A stretch of 63,965 nucleotides of DNA, filler included, from Collodictyon triciliatum (Eukaryota): the NCBI GenBank assembly GCA_043381765.1. It is 11 parts of 11 records of this genome, joined end to end, with 100 filler letters (N's around TTAATTAATTAA, not from the genome) between each part and the next. Parts side by side here need not be neighbours in the genome. Positions count along the whole stretch, not along the records: positions 12,112 to 18,064 come from JBHJMP010004810.1; positions 18,165 to 24,125 come from JBHJMP010004811.1; 9 more parts are not named here. One strand, given 5' to 3'. Position 1 is the stretch's first letter, and every line of letters begins with the position of its first letter. The notes beneath the pieces are model-generated. The model had not been told where the DNA came from. It worked only from the letters and a program-made list of their open reading frames with translations, and did not search any database. The position numbers and the translations under genes were made by a program. This document shows, piece by piece, positions 10,780 through 18,179 of the stretch.

Positions 10780-12116
10780 CAGCGCTCTGATTGAGTAGCT
10801 TTTTTCCCTTCCATTTGGATTTTATTCTAATGTCCTTTTGTCTGAAGCACAGAAATAAAATAGAATGTGACTGGGGAAAGAAAAAGCGTATCGGTCGGTA
10901 CTTTTTGTGTGTTGCTTGATTGTGTTTATAAAAGTAATAAATTTGTGTATGTATTTGAATGGAAAGGAAGGAGAAAGATGCGCTCTATGCAGCAAATGGG
11001 ATGATATGGTTTATCCTTTTTTGCTGTTCTATTTGTTTCCTCCTTCACTTCTTTCTGGGGGTTCTTTTAGAGGTGGTGTTAACCAAATAGGCGCGCTTTT
11101 CTCCTGAGGTTGAGAATGAGTGACACTAACGCACGCAATTTTCTCTCCCCATACTCCTCACACAAGGGTCTGACTCTGTTATTCGCAGTGTGGCATACTC
11201 CAATGTCTAATAATCAAATTCAGCCTTTTTTTTTAAGTTGAGCGTGGGTATCTTCCAATATCCTTTTTTTTTTTTTTCATTCACTTTTTTCTTGTTGATT
11301 GTAATCATTATCTAACAATCATTCCATTTGGCATGTGAACACGCGACTATCTTGACTAATTTATCAAAAACCAAGCATAATTGTTCATAATTTTTATTTC
11401 CTTTTTTCTTTTCTTCTTTGTGGATATGCAAGGCGGGAAGATTTCGGACGCAGAGATACTCATACGATGCTCATATAATCCATTGTTCTCTACATCATGG
11501 TATACGAATCAGATGAATCACTTGGCCAAAAATATCCAATAAAACTTTGTGTTTTCTACTGGACTCTGGTAGAATGGACTCAAGTTCGAGCTCTCGTTTA
11601 TGCACTGTGCCTTTTAACTCTGAGTCAAGGGCAAGTAGCTCTGAAATCTAAGATATTTATAAATGAAACGGATTCAATGCAGGAAGAATAATCATTCAAA
11701 CACCAGGATGCATCCAATATGAAGGAAACAATTATTGGCGACGAAAACTAACAAAGACAACAGTTTTAACCTAATTTTAATTCATTCATCACCTCGTTTT
11801 GTGCAGCGTTGAGTATTTCGAGATTGCGAAGTCTGTTTATAGAATTGGGTAACCTTGATATCTGATGGATGTTTCATATATTTTAAAAGGCTTGCTATAA
11901 ATAGATATCTGCTCACATCCATAAATGAAAAGAAAAGAAGCTCATGATAATCTCAATTTTACGTTACATGGTTGTACGAGATGTCAAGGTGAACAAGAGA
12001 TGAAATAGAGCNNNNNNNNNNNNNNNNNNNNNNNNNNNNNNNNNNNNNNNNNNNNTTAATTAATTAANNNNNNNNNNNNNNNNNNNNNNNNNNNNNNNNN
12101 NNNNNNNNNNNATTTT

Positions 12117-12132
12117 CCCCAAAATTTTGGGG
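12117..12132. terminator. Perfect 16-bp palindrome CCCCAAAATTTTGGGG downstream of the last viral gene; possible 3'-end hairpin
   Basis: Palindrome is directly visible about 35 nt past the stop of the minus-strand gene run; function is inferred. Confidence 0.4.
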
Positions 12133-12165
12133 TAAGTATATAAAAAAATGGGCCAGTCTTCAACT

Positions 12166-12330
12166 CTAGATATTTATTTTTTCAAGCTCACGGTCAGGAC
12201 TAGGCTCACGCGTTTCCATCACGCTACCACAACACTGAGACTTGCGAACGTGTTTTAAATAATACTTCATCGCACGCTCAGCAATCAAACACAAGTTAAT
12301 AATCAACGATACAATCAACACCGGGTCCAT
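12166..12330 (-). CDS. Small viral single-pass membrane protein with KSQCCG motif (54 aa)
   Basis: MDPVLIVSLIINLCLIAERAMKYYLKHVRKSQCCGS... Start moved from the track's GTG (12354) to ATG 12330, which carries the shared TCTT-N9-ATG motif and removes the overlap with the fibre gene. Confidence 0.7.
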   Translation of the reverse strand: MDPVLIVSLIINLCLIAERAMKYYLKHVRKSQCCGSVMETREPSPDRELEKINI

Positions 12331-12346
12331 AAAATAAAAAAGAAAT

Positions 12347-14488
12347 TTATCCACCGTACCGTGTCAACAACCAACCAAATTGGCCCCCTATTAATTCAGT
12401 AAACACACAATCATATTGTCGGGCTAGTGAACCACTATATGCAATAAAGGATTCTCCAGGCGCCTTATTATCAACAGACCCACTAGCGATTACAACCATT
12501 TGAATCCCTGAACCAGCTGTTGCCCCGTTTGTAAATGATATATCAGGGCCAGTGCCTCCAAAAATATAAGACACAATTCTTATTTCAAATCCAGCAGCTT
12601 CTCCCAACCAACTAGATGATTGTTTTAAATCTGGAAATATAATATTTCGTGTGCTGGTGTTTCTATTCAAAACTAAATATCTAGGTGAATTAAGATTAAT
12701 GGTATAATCACCTGTTGAAGTAAACCGCCCTGTTACTATTCTACCGTACTCTGTTATGTCTCGTACAATCCAATAACAATTAGCAGCGCTTCCAGCCCAC
12801 ACAAATGTAGCGCGAACTCTAAAATTATTTGTAATATTTTGAAAAAGATTATCGGTAGCTGTTGTATAATTTGCTGTAGTATTTTTTATAACTGGTCTGC
12901 CATCTCGAGGAAAAATATATCCCCTTGGTTGAACTAATGTAAACCTTACACCATATTGCATATCATTGCTATTTCCAAGCAATTGATATTCCATTTCAAA
13001 CCCATCAAATGATGCACCCATATTATCAAGTGTCACGAGTTTATTTTCTGTTATATTTTCAGATAAGAGCAAGGTTGCAGGGGAAGGATTACTTGTATTA
13101 TAAATATAAGCGCTTGCAGTCCCTCCTGGAACAACTTCAACTTTTTTAACTAATGATGGTGTTGATATACTTCCTGATATTGTTCCGCTTACTGTAAGGT
13201 CTCCTGTTATACTCATCCCTGAATTATTAATCTCAACCCTCTGAACTCGTGTCGGTAAAGTAGCACCTGTACCTGTTGCCCCTAGAAATCTAAAATACGT
13301 ATTCCCGTGCTCAGTTACAAATATTTCATTTGTTCCAGTACCACCAACTAGCCTACTCATAACCGTTTCAGTAGTTGGCCAGTTTGTGTTATTACCCAAC
13401 CTGTAATTTGCTACCGTTCCTGTACTAGAATCATTGAATGACAACTGTATGTAACCTGTAGCGCCTCCTGTACTTCCAATAAACTGAATTGTTTGACTTG
13501 GATTGCTGACATTATTACGAATTGTGCTTCCACCAGATAATCTAAAATTACCTCCAACAAATGCACCAATTTGAGTTCCTGCTGCAACTATTCCGACACC
13601 GATGTCAGCGCCGACCGCTGTTCTTACCAAACCTGTATTTGTAGCGTTAATAAAATTTAATCCGCATGCTGCAGTTGCCCCCACACCTCCATCTGCTATT
13701 GACATCGGCACAGATACCTCCACTTTTTGCGAATCTACAACTGGGACACTTCCAGATGTAACCATATTACCTGATACTGTTATGCAATTTGTTCCACACG
13801 CTCGTATAACAGTTTGGTTTAATTCTGTTCCGGAGACAGGATTATTTGGGAGTCTAACAAAACGAAATCCAGACGACGACATATTTGAACCCATTATACC
13901 GGAAGCGTCGTCACTTCCATTAACTGTTGTAATTCGAGACAATGCTACCAAACCATTATTATTTATACGTAGTCTAGCGGTTCCATTTGTAATTAATTCC
14001 AATTGATCATTTATTCCATTAATACCAGAGTTTGATTGTGGATCGTCAAATCTCAAAGAACAGTCTGATGTAGTTCCGACGTGTGTGATGTTTATCGGAA
14101 CACTACAAGTTAAAACATTGCTGACTAATGTCGGAGTAGGTGCCCAACTTGCTGCGCTATTATTTGATGTAAGAAATTGCCCATTATTTCCTGCAGTTTG
14201 TCCTGGCACCTGCGAAACTGGACTCCAAGAAACATCAGTTCCATTAGTTTGTAAAAAATTACCGGTCTGTCCTGCTTGCGGGGGTAATTCTCCTTCAATT
14301 CCGGTATACTGGTATCCGGTTGCTGTATCATTTACTTCCAAAAATTTATTTGCATCGGCTGCTGTTATTGTTGGCAAAATAAAAGATGTTTCTGTTGTGT
14401 CAGTATACTCTGAGTTTGTCCCGTCTGTTACAAAACTATAATCATAAGGGTACCTGCTCGAATTTGATCCGATTTCATATGAAGTCAT
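12347..14488 (-). CDS. Putative virion fibre/spike protein (713 aa)
   Basis: G/T/N/S-rich beta-type composition; three LP..aG..gxFLxxN..xxW-type shaft repeats; LELITNGTARLRINNNG and GDLTVSGTISG segments typical of viral fibres; directly downstream of the penton gene. Confidence 0.75.
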   Translation of the reverse strand: MTSYEIGSNSSRYPYDYSFVTDGTNSEYTDTTETSFILPTITAADANKFLEVNDTATGYQYTGIEGELPPQAGQTGNFLQTNGTDVSWSPVSQVPGQTAGNNGQFLTSNNSAASWAPTPTLVSNVLTCSVPINITHVGTTSDCSLRFDDPQSNSGINGINDQLELITNGTARLRINNNGLVALSRITTVNGSDDASGIMGSNMSSSGFRFVRLPNNPVSGTELNQTVIRACGTNCITVSGNMVTSGSVPVVDSQKVEVSVPMSIADGGVGATAACGLNFINATNTGLVRTAVGADIGVGIVAAGTQIGAFVGGNFRLSGGSTIRNNVSNPSQTIQFIGSTGGATGYIQLSFNDSSTGTVANYRLGNNTNWPTTETVMSRLVGGTGTNEIFVTEHGNTYFRFLGATGTGATLPTRVQRVEINNSGMSITGDLTVSGTISGSISTPSLVKKVEVVPGGTASAYIYNTSNPSPATLLLSENITENKLVTLDNMGASFDGFEMEYQLLGNSNDMQYGVRFTLVQPRGYIFPRDGRPVIKNTTANYTTATDNLFQNITNNFRVRATFVWAGSAANCYWIVRDITEYGRIVTGRFTSTGDYTINLNSPRYLVLNRNTSTRNIIFPDLKQSSSWLGEAAGFEIRIVSYIFGGTGPDISFTNGATAGSGIQMVVIASGSVDNKAPGESFIAYSGSLARQYDCVFTELIGGQFGWLLTRYGG

Positions 14489-14504
14489 ATAAAAGCATAT
14501 AAAA

Positions 14505-15380
14505 TTATTCTACGGGAACGAGCTTGAGCGTAATGTCAACACTTGCCGTCTGCGGGAAGTTAACTAGATTGTTGTACTGGTCAATAAATGTTATATTGAA
14601 TCGTGTAGGCAAAACCGAAAAGACTTGTTGCGTAAATTCTTCACTTGCTTCTTCTACGAATGTGTACTGGTATTTACTATTACTTAGATTCAATGGACAC
14701 CGATAAGCAATATCAAAACGCTCAGGGACATCTGTGTTGAAATTCAGATTTGTAATTCCCTGGATAGTCATAAAAAAATAAGAGTACGGTTGTAAATTTC
14801 CAGGATTCGGCAGATATTTTTTAGGAGTTGTTTGCAGAGGTAATTCAAATTCTGTGTTGTAATTGCATCCAATCACATAAGACCCACCGAAACCAAATTC
14901 ACCCTGGTACTGACTAAATTCATTATTAGATGTTATATAAACTCTTATTGCTGGTGTCGCAACTGTTTTTCTTTCAAAATAAAACCGATTGCGAATATCG
15001 TCATATCCCATATCATACTGGTCGTATCCAAAGCTTGCTAAAAAAGTATTTAATGCCAGGGCAACCGCTTGGGCATATTGTGAAGTGTTATATGTACCCT
15101 CATTAATTGTAATTGTTGAAAAAGTGCTTATAGTTGTGTTTGTATTCAATACTCGAATTCGCAATTGATTGTATTGATACAACTCTGTTATTTGGTGTAT
15201 CGTCGTGGGGTAGTACACATTTTTTATATATAGATTATATGACTTGTTTTTGATAACTGGGAAATCTGATAAATCAAAGGTGAAATTGTTGTTTGACCCA
15301 CTCACTCGTTTCGATTCCGAATTAATAAAAAGATAATTGGCCTCATTTGTATTTCTCTCGTTTAGCAGACGGCGTTGCAT
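14505..15380 (-). CDS. Putative minor capsid protein (penton, single jelly-roll), PLV/virophage type (291 aa)
   Basis: Pattern YLFINSE..SGSNNNFTFDL / VYYPTTIHQIT / TITINEGTYN..YAQAVALALN / NLQPYSYFFMTI / IAYRCPL / FNITFIDQYNNLVNF..DITLKL resembles PLV/Polinton pentons; size and position next to the MCP agree. Confidence 0.8.
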   Translation of the reverse strand: MQRRLLNERNTNEANYLFINSESKRVSGSNNNFTFDLSDFPVIKNKSYNLYIKNVYYPTTIHQITELYQYNQLRIRVLNTNTTISTFSTITINEGTYNTSQYAQAVALALNTFLASFGYDQYDMGYDDIRNRFYFERKTVATPAIRVYITSNNEFSQYQGEFGFGGSYVIGCNYNTEFELPLQTTPKKYLPNPGNLQPYSYFFMTIQGITNLNFNTDVPERFDIAYRCPLNLSNSKYQYTFVEEASEEFTQQVFSVLPTRFNITFIDQYNNLVNFPQTASVDITLKLVPVE

Positions 15381-15413
15381 AAATTACCATAGAATTTTTT
15401 TCTATATCAAATT
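15381..15413. promoter_or_regulatory. Bidirectional 33-bp viral promoter with symmetric TCTA boxes
   Basis: CAT-AAATTACCA-TAGA-ATTTTTT-TCTA-TATCAAATT-ATG: TCTA lies 9 nt upstream of each divergent ATG. Confidence 0.65.
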
Positions 15414-15788
15414 ATGGAGCAAGAATATGAAGAAGATATTGAACTTCCTGTTGCCGTGCCCGAAAAAAAGAAAAGAACACTGACCCCCAAGCAGCTCAAA
15501 AATTTGGAACTGATGAGGCAGAAAAAGATGGCCAAAAAAAAAGCATCTCAAATGATCGAGGAATCTGTTAGAAATTCGGCGAGAGACGCAGAGACCGAGG
15601 AATTCTCTAATCTAAAAAGTGAACTCTCTGAGATAAAAGAGCAACTAAAAAAGAAATCCAAACCCCGGGAAATTCCGAAGAAACGAAAAAAAGCTGAATC
15701 AGAATCAGAATCAGATGAACCAGAACTTGGTACAAGTTACAGACAATCAACAAATCCATACTTGAATCAACTTGTAAGATTTAAATAA
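15414..15788 (+). CDS. Small charged viral protein (124 aa), possibly nucleic-acid binding
   Basis: Lys/Glu-rich; KKKRTLTPKQLKNLELMRQKK motif and a short coiled coil; exactly fills the gap between penton and MCP and has the shared upstream motif. Confidence 0.75.
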   Translation: MEQEYEEDIELPVAVPEKKKRTLTPKQLKNLELMRQKKMAKKKASQMIEESVRNSARDAETEEFSNLKSELSEIKEQLKKKSKPREIPKKRKKAESESESDEPELGTSYRQSTNPYLNQLVRFK

Positions 15789-15815
15789 TTATTTTTTTAT
15801 AAAACAATTATTTAA
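15781..15815. terminator. Hairpin spanning the convergent stop codons of the 124-aa gene and the MCP
   Basis: TTAAATAATT-a-TTTT-tttat-AAAA-c-AATTATTTAA: 10-bp stem, one mismatch, 4-bp stem, 5-nt loop. Confidence 0.55.
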
Positions 15816-17593
15816 TAAAGAACTTGGGCGTTGTCTTTTCCGACGTCAAGAATACGTGTGTGCTCGATGATGACCCAGCAAGTATAATTATCTACAGGTG
15901 AGACATTTGAAACAGCAGCAGCAGCATTTTTTGCACTTGTGGCAGTTCCACCTGCTGTAACTTGATGCCCTTCTGGGCAAGAAGTACCAAACTGTAGACC
16001 AACCTGTACAATTCCAGAATTGGAAGATGCGTTGTATCCACTGAGCTCAAACTCGTCAGAATAATCTGATCGAGTCATTGACCACCCCAGTGCAAAATAA
16101 GTGGGAGTCTTCCAATATATTTCTTCACATTCTAAAGGTGAAGCTCCAAAATTGGCCGGCATTCTATTGGAATTAGCGCCGGCGGCAATTGCTCCAGTGT
16201 CAAACATGTTTGCCATTACTGCTTTATTCTGAGCATAATACATTCCAGCCCCTGATGTTGGAAAAACAGTCGGGACGTCAGCTCCAGTAACAATAAGTGG
16301 TCTTCCACAAACTTGTCCGAAATTCACCTGGCCAAGCATCTCAGCTGACGTATTGTATCCCAACGCTTTCATTAAATAATTAAGGGCTTCTGGTTGTTGA
16401 CATCCTGCTTGTCCATTAATTCCAGATGTCAAAAATCCAGATGCTGTTCCAGCAGCGGATGTTAAACTTGCTCCAGAAGACGGATATGTTAAATAACTTG
16501 GTCCATTCAGCAAAATTGGGACAGACGGGGAAACTTTTCCATTTATTGTAAGTCTTGCTTGAGCTAAACCTTCAATCGCATGAAGTCTGTCCGTTCCTAG
16601 GTATGATAATGTTCCTTGTTCAATATTTCGTGTAAAAATACAATAAATTGCGTTAATATTTGAGTACTGAATTGAAATATTTTGTGTAATCCATCCAGAT
16701 GAATTTTTTGGGATAGGAAATTGCGTCATGAAATAAGTTTCTATAGGTATTTGAAGATTATTATTGATCAGATATTGACTAAGCGCATTGTTATAGCTAG
16801 GTTCTGTTTGAATGTAATTAATATTCATTCGTATATTTGAAAGTCGATAAGATAAAGTTGTCTCAGTAACACCTGAAAAAGCAAAATAATTCCTAACAGT
16901 ATTTGCTGCTGCAGAAACCGTTCCATGAGTAAAACATTCACTAGCGGGTGACAACCAAATACGGATTTCCAATGAATTTGGCCCTAAAAGGTAAGCAGGT
17001 AAGAGAGTTTTGATATTCATAAGTCCTAAGTATCGTAACGGAAAACCGATTTGGATTGTATTGCTTGTAGTACTGTCATCAGGTATACCAACCAACAATT
17101 CACGACTTCTATCCAAAATAGATTTACCTACTCCCATTCCTCCACTCATTAGATTTACCCAATTTTGATTATTGCACCAATTGTGCTTGAAAGTCTCTAA
17201 ATACGAATAATTGTCTATGCGTTCCAATTCTGAGCCATTTAAGTAGACGGCGATGCGATAGATAAAACTTTCATAACTTTCACAAGGTGCCAGAATAGCC
17301 ACACTATCATCAGCTGTTAAAATACTATTTTTTAAATTTGCTACATTAGCTGCATCAGTTACTGCAGCTGTCAAATTCCGCACTTGCAAATCAGCAACAA
17401 TATGAGCGCTGTCCATCTGAATCGACCATTCATTGTCTATAGGCACGCGAAAAACAATTTGGGGGCCACTACTAAAACCCGCAGTCTGCTCCGTTCCATT
17501 GCTGGGCAAAACTTGCCTCATTTGCTTTTCCAAAATAGTTTTCTTTTTACTTGATACATTTCTAAACTGTAGCTCCTCCGGTAGTGAATCCAT
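15812..17593 (-). CDS. Putative double jelly-roll major capsid protein, PLV-like (593 aa)
   Basis: Pattern RQVLPSNG..FSSGPQIVFRVP / SFIYRIAVYLNGSELERIDNYSYL / KTLLPAYLL..LEIRIWL / YRLSNIRMNINYI / ARLTINGKVSPSVPI / C-terminal VIIEHTRILDV..AQVLY resembles PLV MCPs. Confidence 0.82.
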   Translation of the reverse strand: MDSLPEELQFRNVSSKKKTILEKQMRQVLPSNGTEQTAGFSSGPQIVFRVPIDNEWSIQMDSAHIVADLQVRNLTAAVTDAANVANLKNSILTADDSVAILAPCESYESFIYRIAVYLNGSELERIDNYSYLETFKHNWCNNQNWVNLMSGGMGVGKSILDRSRELLVGIPDDSTTSNTIQIGFPLRYLGLMNIKTLLPAYLLGPNSLEIRIWLSPASECFTHGTVSAAANTVRNYFAFSGVTETTLSYRLSNIRMNINYIQTEPSYNNALSQYLINNNLQIPIETYFMTQFPIPKNSSGWITQNISIQYSNINAIYCIFTRNIEQGTLSYLGTDRLHAIEGLAQARLTINGKVSPSVPILLNGPSYLTYPSSGASLTSAAGTASGFLTSGINGQAGCQQPEALNYLMKALGYNTSAEMLGQVNFGQVCGRPLIVTGADVPTVFPTSGAGMYYAQNKAVMANMFDTGAIAAGANSNRMPANFGASPLECEEIYWKTPTYFALGWSMTRSDYSDEFELSGYNASSNSGIVQVGLQFGTSCPEGHQVTAGGTATSAKNAAAAVSNVSPVDNYTCWVIIEHTRILDVGKDNAQVLY

Positions 17594-17615
17594 ATTCTAA
17601 AAAAGAAAATAATTT

Positions 17616-18026
17616 TTAATAACCTATTTTATTTCTGATATTGTCGTCGTATGATTTTATGACTTTTCCCAGGGATTCGTTTCGTTGTGCAGCTCCGCGA
17701 ATTACAGGCGCGTATTTATTTACTTGGTCAACACCTTTTTTAAATTGCCCCTCGTATTTTGTCCCTTCTACAAGACCCGCAACTGTTGCGCCTTTTTTTC
17801 CTTCTGCCAAATCCAAGCCTTTTTTCACGTATCCTTTATTTGCATTGTACACCTTCAACGCCTGCTCCGACAATCCACCCGTGGCTGTACGAGCCAAGTC
17901 CCTCAATCCCCCACCGGTTGCTTTATCAACGGCATTGACTACTTTCTCACCGACATTCATCCCCTTCCTAACAACTTTTACTAGACCTTTTGTGAATCCC
18001 CTCAAGCTTCTCCGTGTGAATACCAT
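17616..18026 (-). CDS. Basic Gly/Lys-rich viral protein with amphipathic N-terminus (136 aa); candidate core/membrane-lytic protein
   Basis: MVFTRRSLRGFTKGLVKVVRKGMNVGEKVVNAVDK; two ATGG sites; immediately upstream of the MCP; has the shared upstream motif. Confidence 0.7.
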   Translation of the reverse strand: MVFTRRSLRGFTKGLVKVVRKGMNVGEKVVNAVDKATGGGLRDLARTATGGLSEQALKVYNANKGYVKKGLDLAEGKKGATVAGLVEGTKYEGQFKKGVDQVNKYAPVIRGAAQRNESLGKVIKSYDDNIRNKIGY

Positions 18027-18179
18027 ATCATTACTTATAAAAAAATCTAGGTCAACTCCTCCTCNNNNNNNNNNNNNNNNNNNNNNNNNNNNNNNNNNNN
18101 NNNNNNNNTTAATTAATTAANNNNNNNNNNNNNNNNNNNNNNNNNNNNNNNNNNNNNNNNNNNNAAAAAAAAAAAAAAA

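Follow-up and report, generated by a model that had tools for sequence, protein, structure and literature searches.

A fixed-distance T-rich motif before six genes of a polinton-like virus contig, a candidate per-gene promoter of giant-virus late type

Genes of the viral contig

This report concerns a short T-rich motif that stands at a fixed distance before all six genes of a small viral contig and that may provide each of them with its own promoter. The contig forms part of the window, a stretch of 63,965 nucleotides from the Collodictyon triciliatum assembly GCA_043381765.1, and, judged from gene content and structural models, represents a genome fragment of a polinton-like virus (PLV). It is filled by six open reading frames (ORFs), five on the minus strand (136, 593, 291, 713 and 54 aa) and one of 124 aa on the plus strand, which is placed between the 593-aa and 291-aa genes. 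Related sequences are designated below by locus numbers (L001 and onward). The contig and its genes are as follows.

12112..18064, no strand: stand-alone contig of 5,953 bp, putative polinton-like virus genome fragment, morphogenesis module only
17616..18026, minus: gene for a 136-aa basic protein, directly upstream of the capsid gene
15812..17593, minus: predicted major capsid protein, double jelly-roll, 593 aa (AlphaFold (AF2) model and Foldseek)
15414..15788, plus: gene for a Lys/Glu-rich 124-aa protein, with a homologous reverse-oriented small gene in L001-L006
14505..15380, minus: putative penton (minor capsid) protein, 291 aa (low-confidence AF2 model and Foldseek search of BFVD)
12347..14488, minus: putative fibre-like protein, 713 aa, labelled from its composition, its position after the penton gene and its swapped body in relatives
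12166..12330, minus: gene for a 54-aa hydrophobic small protein, its signal directly after the fibre stop codon

Searches of Pfam and PHROGs with the six window proteins yield no significant family. The AF2 model of the 593-aa protein (pLDDT 80.6, pTM 0.84) matches the double-jelly-roll capsids of iridovirus, Sputnik, mavirus, PBCV-1, ASFV and others in Foldseek, with E values from 1e-12 to 1e-20. This protein has 38 homologues in a large protein collection, all unnamed, and 26 representatives in a 50%-clustered library; a cluster look-up for six capsid homologues gives "hypothetical protein" or no name, and a profile of 37 capsid homologues finds no sequence match in the PDB. The 291-aa model is poor (pLDDT 58.9), and the penton assignment rests on this weak model. 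Its top named Foldseek BFVD matches are the mavirus minor capsid protein (6.8e-10), proteins of Tetraselmis viridis virus S1, and minor capsid or penton proteins of virophages and nucleocytoplasmic large DNA viruses, and penton homologues occupy the equivalent place in L001, L007 and L009.

A basic homologue of 134-145 aa adjoins the capsid gene upstream in every relative that reaches that side (L003, L007-L010, L012-L014, L135 and L136), and the 136-aa gene may thus be an uncharacterised core gene of the lineage. The 713-aa protein is probably fibre-like. In the contig of one relative, the 54-aa gene region and the first ~50 fibre codons are kept, and a body of 1978 nt (12350-14329) is swapped for 2578 other letters, so that the distal fibre resembles a cassette open to exchange, in keeping with a receptor-binding part. 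The small hydrophobic gene had originally been predicted to encode a transmembrane protein with the motif at its start; the motif is present there, and the start is the ATG at 12330 (54 aa) rather than that of a longer GTG ORF. Region 12194-12350 is retained in the contigs of relatives.

Longer contigs of the relatives add a Pox_A32 packaging ATPase, a D5_N or DUF5906 helicase-primase, a weak rve integrase match, GIY-YIG and ThyX. Pox_A32 matches occur in L007, L008, L009, L010, L013 and L135, and the viral contig breaks off 38 nt beyond the 136-aa gene on its upstream side. The Pfam matches of 44 ORFs of the relatives, whose contigs are possibly incomplete, include no protease family. The capsid and penton proteins predicted here, together with the A32 ATPase and D5-like helicase of the relatives, identify the virus as polinton-like at the level of sequence and model. 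The PLV-type capsid of the original prediction is borne out by the double-jelly-roll fold of the 593-aa protein, the penton matches and the relatives' ATPase and helicase.

A fixed-distance motif at the six gene starts

All six genes had been said to share T[C/A]T[A/T] nine nucleotides before the ATG. The six upstream strings read exactly as given in that claim, with the tetramer at −13 to −10 in 6/6. It takes the form TCTA, TCTT and TATA twice each, exact TCTA thus standing at only two of the six sites. T is also present at −14 in 6/6, and the full signal is T-T[C/A]T[A/T] at −14 to −10. Its copies, and one spacer that contains two of them, lie at the following positions.

18036..18040, minus: TTATA, 136-aa gene, −14 to −10
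17603..17614, minus: AATTATTTTCTT, capsid gene, with TTCTT at −14 to −10 (17603-17607); longest conserved upstream block
15390..15394, minus: TTCTA, penton gene, −14 to −10
15400-15404, plus: TTCTA, 124-aa gene, −14 to −10
14498-14502, minus: TTATA, fibre gene, −14 to −10
12340-12344, minus: TTCTT, 54-aa gene, immediately past the fibre stop codon
15381..15413, no strand: divergent penton/124-aa spacer of 33 nt, with two inverted copies (ATAGAA ... TTCTAT), each 9 nt from its own ATG

The pooled intergenic sequence has an A+T content of 146/186 (~78%), and A/T-rich flanks lie on both sides of the tetramer, as is characteristic of late promoters of the type found in mavirus and Cafeteria roenbergensis virus (CroV). 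The stop-to-ATG spacers, of 16, 16, 20 and 22 nt, offer barely enough room for the motif at its offset.

With genes packed this tightly, the motif could serve to end genes or to process RNA, as a terminator, a poly(A) signal or a splice-leader acceptor on polycistronic RNA, and lie near the ATG only by proximity. It falls within 16-22 nt past the upstream stop at three tandem junctions, a pyrimidine run is followed by AG at the capsid-gene and 136-aa sites, and one RNA-library contig spans the penton gene into the fibre gene, a kind of contig that shows no single transcript. The divergent penton/124-aa spacer, however, contains no gene end and yet has one motif per start, which indicates that the motif belongs to starts, whereas the convergent 124-aa/capsid spacer (23 nt) holds two gene ends and no motif. 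Moreover, the distance is fixed to the ATG and varies with respect to the preceding stop, and AG follows the run at only 2/6 sites and is lost before the capsid gene in L001, L003, L004 and L006. A processing or end-of-gene role is thus improbable.

Chance controls

A motif that is short and degenerate, in spacers of high A+T content, might also be a functionless by-product of short AT-rich spacers and shared ancestry. This possibility was addressed by a shuffle test in which each 30-nt upstream string was shuffled separately and the best five-column block was taken at any offset, a design that corrects for post hoc motif choice. The best observed block lies at −14 to −10 with a score of 34.2, and the shuffle maximum is 33.7, so that 0/5000 composition-preserving shuffles reach the observed value even with the offset left free. 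At a fixed offset, T[CA]T[AT] occurs in a maximum of 4/6 strings in 20000 shuffles and never in 6/6.

Counts over actual ATGs point the same way. On both strands of the viral contig, TT[CA]T[AT]-N9-ATG is found at 7/161 ATGs; six are the gene starts, and the seventh is found 10 nt into the fibre gene. On the other window contigs the motif stands at 18/2190 ATGs (0.8%), which are not known gene starts, and at 6/342 (1.75%) where A+T makes up 75% or more of the preceding 30 nt. Loci from a pattern scan of IMG/VR for AAATTATTTTCTW-N9-10-ATG, which returned at least 119 stretches, were reused solely as a background control: in 119 unrelated loci the motif precedes 14/1144 called genes (1.2%), and in those with a GC content of 35% or less, 10/685. 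The enrichment check against shuffled and AT-rich sequence that accompanied the original prediction comes out in favour of a real motif, with the motif at every start here and a background of ~1-2%.

A second block, (T)AGA(A) at −24 to −20, also beat the shuffles. It is not claimed as an element because at the divergent pair the block is simply the neighbour's TCTA read in reverse complement, and at the fibre gene it consists of the last penton codons. Scans for sigma-70 promoters and intrinsic terminators remain near shuffle expectation.

Conservation in relatives

The relatives comprise 14 metagenome loci, one IMG/VR locus (L015, identical to L009) and two contigs of a pond metagenome-assembled genome (MAG), L135 and L136. 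All counts exclude L002, which is nearly the same as L001, and L015. Genes were called by a rule that took the longest ATG ORFs of 50 aa or more without overlap; the rule is crude, and some starts are wrong. An IMG/VR scan with the capsid protein alone gives no match, and with the alignment only L015.

Among close relatives, with capsid identities of 61-90%, 8/14 called genes have the first base of T[CA]T[AT] at −13 and four more have it at −14; in L010-L014 (33-42% capsid identity) it stands at −13 in 8/24 genes. The motif stays at its offset in relatives with as little as 31-38% capsid identity. Any other offset from −30 to −4 accounts for at most five genes, and the offset profile of the relatives accordingly has a sharp peak. 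The distance from motif to ATG is 9 nt in the window and 9-10 nt in the relatives, where the density of TTCTW upstream of genes is six times that in coding sequence. The T at −1, which the original prediction had listed for every site, is present in 6/6 starts of the viral contig but is not conserved in the relatives (8/14 and 13/24 genes), and it was dropped as a part of the motif.

The longest conserved stretch is that of the capsid gene, where AAATTATTTT followed by [C/A/G]T[T/A] is found in 13/16 loci. The AAATTATTTT block is kept in L010, L012, L013, L135 and L136, at 31-41% protein identity, while the adjoining 9-10 nt up to the ATG vary, which argues against a mere by-product of ancestry and composition. 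The tetramer of this gene is TCTA in L004, L005, L010, L014 and L136, and TCTT in the window, L001-L003, L006 and L012. Before the 136-aa gene, the signal is TTATA in the window and L003, and TTCTT or TTCTA at equal offset in L010, L012, L013, L014, L135 and L136. The penton gene has TCTA in the window and ATATT in L001, L004 and L006 (TATT at −13 to −10), and the 124-aa homologues in L001-L006 have TCTA or TCTT at −14 to −11. Since C and A at −12 are swapped in the same gene between lineages (136-aa and penton genes), both tetramer forms look functionally equivalent. The comparisons and controls together make it very probable that the motif is a real, conserved and start-associated cis element.

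Gene class and 3' hairpins

In L135 (12.4 kb), one gene block includes the A32 ATPase, the 136-aa homologue and the capsid gene, and 5/6 of its genes have TT[CA]T at −14 to −11; in the helicase-holding block the count is 0/7. This division suggests that the −14 motif marks one gene class, a restriction that a by-product of AT-rich spacers would not readily produce. The viral contig itself contains structural genes only. Within the helicase block of L135, AACTTAAAGA occurs ~33 nt before the ATG in 3/7 genes; gene starts of the other relatives lack it. At positions 2745-3560 of L135, three consecutive genes of the non-structural block have AACTTAAAGA, a second promoter-like motif.

The convergent 124-aa/capsid spacer of the window coincides with a palindrome.

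15781..15815, no strand: AT-rich palindrome in the convergent 124-aa/capsid spacer, a 15-bp hairpin on capsid-sense RNA

Its predicted folding energy (dG −9.5, z −4.2) is matched by 0/200 shuffles. Past the capsid stop, 6/8 relatives that were folded (L001, L003, L004, L006, L007 and L008) also form an AT-rich hairpin, the sequence of which varies; L010 folds a GC-containing repeat at this place, and L009 has none of note.

Proposed mechanism and its reader

The promoter role, the transcript start sites and the polymerase identity proposed below are inferred from these patterns. Every one of the six genes would have a minimal core promoter or initiator to itself, in which a brief T/A-rich run closes with T-T[C/A]T[A/T] at −14 to −10, with the capsid-gene promoter in a longer form, AAATTATTTT[C/A]T[A/T]. 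That the element is a promoter or initiator is likely on the present comparisons. Transcripts would begin at or right after the tetramer and have leaders of ~10 nt or less, and a start of this kind would account for the fixed offset and for spacers of as little as 16 nt. The signal may be reserved for morphogenesis genes, other genes of a relative using a different motif at ~−33. At the sole convergent gene pair, the AT-rich hairpin would mark the 3' ends, and tandem genes that lack hairpins may yield 3'-coterminal transcripts that extend to the next hairpin.

The proposed reader of these promoters is a co-infecting giant virus, through its late transcription machinery. It is ranked first because the core, the AT-rich flanks, the offset, the gene class and the hairpin all agree with CroV/ChlorV-type viruses and with virophages. 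The assignment to a giant-virus polymerase is nonetheless tentative and tilts slightly towards doubt, because exact TCTA is confined to two sites, the IMG/VR pattern scan yielded no helper and at least one PLV is autonomous. Taken as a whole, the best explanation is a set of per-gene core promoters of a freshwater PLV, most likely read by giant-virus late machinery, an account in which confidence and doubt are about evenly balanced. The original claim that each gene has its own late-type promoter survives in the form of a conserved start-associated element with a CroV-like core, flanks and place, and gives way where an exact TCTA at every gene would be expected; the virophage lifestyle drawn from it stays a conjecture.

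Several results weigh against this explanation. The non-TCTA sites (two TCTT and two TATA, together with the penton TATT in close relatives) weaken the match to the CroV type. Counts over close relatives are not independent, as their ancestry is shared, and L007-L009, the most AT-rich relatives (GC 24-27%), show no offset peak and have TTCTW at scattered distances; both points would also suit a functionless by-product, which is disfavoured by the shuffles, the low background, the capsid-gene block and the single gene class, and is very improbable. No significant hairpin was found after the 136-aa, penton, fibre and 54-aa genes when these were folded with shuffles. The mimivirid early motif (AAAATTGA or ATAATTGA) is absent from the viral contig, and the relatives have scattered copies only, mostly intragenic. 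The IMG/VR pattern scan found no giant-virus sequence with the motif: in its AAATTATTTTCTW stretches (at least 119), nearly all ATGs open no ORF and no capsid relative is present, so that they are chance matches only, and no scan locus, including eight giant-virus-bin loci among the 80 listed, exceeds its one ascertained site at −14/−15. Finally, replication independent of a giant virus is on record for at least one PLV (PMC10945749), which makes a host polymerase a live alternative.

Under that alternative, the motif would be an initiator-type core promoter read by host RNA polymerase II, the virus would be autonomous in a protist or alga, and the likeness to CroV would reflect convergence of short AT-rich initiators. 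Half of the sites being TATA or TATT rather than TCTA speaks for it, as do the giant-virus-independent replication just cited and the failure of the pattern scan to find a helper virus; in the GC-richer L013, moreover, TTTCA, TCCA and GCGCA stand at the offset and resemble the pyrimidine-A initiator consensus. In contrast, the two-class layout (~−33 versus −14) and the AT-rich 3' hairpin have reported counterparts in viruses of mimivirid type and in their parasites, and leaders of ~10 nt with spacers of 16-33 nt are unusual for most eukaryotic nuclear genes. The rarity of the motif on the other window contigs (0.8%) also speaks against a host signal, with the limit that the ATGs counted there are not known gene starts and that a link of these contigs to the host is not shown. 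Transcription by the host enzyme is therefore considered unlikely, though less remotely so than a processing signal or a by-product.

In IMG/VR, L009 (= L015) stands in a bin that is named as a giant virus. As backing for a giant-virus link this is weak: the placement could reflect co-occurrence with a giant virus, and the Bacteroidetes and giant-virus bin placements are probably due to binning by AT-rich composition. L135 and L136 are binned in a pond MAG labelled Bacteroidetes, and they are taken as mis-binned.

A further proposal, put forward with still more reserve than the giant-virus polymerase itself, is that this widespread freshwater PLV lineage may be a hyperparasite of CroV/ChlorV-like (aliimimivirine) giant viruses that has copied its helper's regulatory grammar, namely the −14 late promoter, the ~−33 motif and AT-rich 3' hairpins. 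If so, late-promoter mimicry, so far reported for virophages, would extend to a PLV clade, and uncultured PLVs could be matched to their giant viruses by a sequence rule. Most PLVs are known from sequence only, and their need for a giant virus is usually unclear; a fixed-position, class-limited signal that matches a known giant-virus late motif would be a cheap and testable predictor of lifestyle and helper lineage.

Setting of the contig and occurrence in public libraries

The original prediction spoke of an element. The viral genes lie on a stand-alone contig flanked by artificial linkers. The linkers and the features at the two contig ends are listed here.

12012-12111 and 18065-18164, no strand: artificial linkers N44-TTAATTAATTAA-N44, on both flanks of the viral contig
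18047..18064, minus: last six codons (EEELT, stop) of a cut upstream gene at the contig end, recognised by comparison with L003
12117..12132, no strand: perfect 16-nt palindrome CCCCAAAATTTTGGGG at the left end of the contig, 34 nt past the last gene

TTAATTAATTAA occurs 10 times in the window, ~6.05 kb apart and with N runs on both sides each time, and the stretches between linkers shrink steadily (5957, 5954, 5953 ... 5943). Such length-sorted stretches with N/TTAATTAATTAA linkers show that the window is a chain of loose contigs joined artificially. Which stretches are neighbours is an artefact of this joining, and inferences from genomic context in this assembly are affected by it. Neither integration of the viral contig into the genome of the Collodictyon assembly nor a role of this organism as its host is shown; the supposed viral element in a eukaryote genome is a loose contig of a concatenated assembly and is not to be counted as an integration.

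Microsatellites terminate most of the non-viral contigs of the window. The proteins of these other contigs are eukaryotic and include a Roc-COR protein beside a kinase, a DOMON-EGF protein and an NHL-repeat protein. At 31965-35364 of the window, a Roc-COR GTPase ORF is followed by a protein kinase ORF (ROCO/LRRK-like), ordinary eukaryotic content that is unrelated to the virus.

At the left end of the viral contig, the contigs of relatives diverge from it left of 12194. The CCCCAAAATTTTGGGG palindrome forms a 6-bp hairpin that is not significant (z only −0.5 for a 57-nt stretch), and a hairpin at a 3' end, a terminal structure and an assembly artefact are all possible readings of it.

Twenty listed runs from 12 studies, with the labels freshwater, wetland, riverine, aquatic, aquaculture or subsurface metagenome, contain words nearly identical to those of the contig. 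Shares in the listed runs range from 0.07 to 0.45 and are at least 0.21 in 18/20, and the presence of the lineage is confirmed by relatives' contigs in the four runs compared. Two metatranscriptome runs of one study (X19 and X20) contain contigs on the penton, capsid, 136-aa and 54-aa genes of relatives at 85-95%; such RNA-library contigs show neither starts, ends nor strand, DNA can be present in the libraries, and fibre parts without cover are uninformative. An X20 contig that begins ~41 letters beyond 15348 (~−9 of the penton ATG) was not counted as evidence, since it comes from one study and its letters were unseen. A DNA-like contig (X14) runs on across the penton/124-aa spacer.

Comparison with known systems

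The putative late promoter of CroV consists of TCTA in A/T-rich flanks and is found before 124 late genes (PMC5294985). In ChlorV-1, a TCTA peak is placed "around -14" and an early motif, AAAAATTGA, "around -34" (bioRxiv 10.1101/2025.11.19.688996, Fig. S6 legend), and these motifs are said to be conserved with those of CroV in sequence and position (bioRxiv 10.1101/2025.11.19.688996, PMC13196603). The signal described here is alike in its core, which is exact TCTA at two of six sites, its AT-rich setting and its place before structural genes, with TT[C/A]T[A/T] at −14 to −10 against ~−14 in ChlorV-1. It differs in that the core is degenerate, the carrier is a small capsid virus, and the capsid gene has the AAATTATTTT extension, which goes unmentioned in the available passages on CroV and ChlorV.

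Another parallel is offered by mavirus and the type-4 endogenous mavirus-like elements (EMALE04). The TCTA motif is present in mavirus and all type-4 EMALEs and not in other EMALE types (PMC8547959), and type 4 EMALEs alone are reactivated by CroV (PMC10945749). These too are small double-jelly-roll viruses with a giant-virus TCTA motif, and among them only the motif-bearing elements respond to CroV (PMC8547959, PMC10945749). Unlike them, the relatives considered here show an A32 ATPase, a D5/DUF5906 helicase and a weak rve match without a protease match, and they are freshwater rather than marine. The hallmark gene set of virophages (Maveriviricetes) includes a cysteine maturation protease.

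Virophages and transpovirons have the late promoter and the terminator hairpin of their host virus (PMC7031253). The AT-rich palindrome directly past the capsid stop, in the window and 6/8 relatives, recalls the "hairpin rule" of Mimiviridae (PMC7031253, PMC4402537). Here, in contrast, a hairpin is supported at the convergent pair only, the four other gene ends being without a significant one.

Among PLVs, PgVV/Gezel-14T, the one well-studied virophage-like member, uses the mimivirid early motif AAAATTGA (bioRxiv 10.1101/2022.07.28.501842). Its AT-rich intergenic stretches and giant-virus-type promoter indicate monocistronic transcription by the helper (bioRxiv 10.1101/2022.07.28.501842). The virus here is likewise of PLV type, with AT-rich spacers and a candidate promoter of giant-virus type, and it differs in that the motif is of late type and AAAATTGA is absent. 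One survey matched PLVs to the early motif only (PMC11502894). No published description of a TCTA-type motif at −14 in a polinton-like virus was found in a search that did not extend to full texts and supplements, and in PMC12945077 TCTA occurs only within a quantitative PCR probe.

The poxvirus late promoter likewise combines a T-rich core with a start-proximal initiator and almost no 5' leader (PMC5294985). Its short spacer and its TAAAT initiator at the ATG set it apart, as initiator and spacing are different here and no TAAATG is present.

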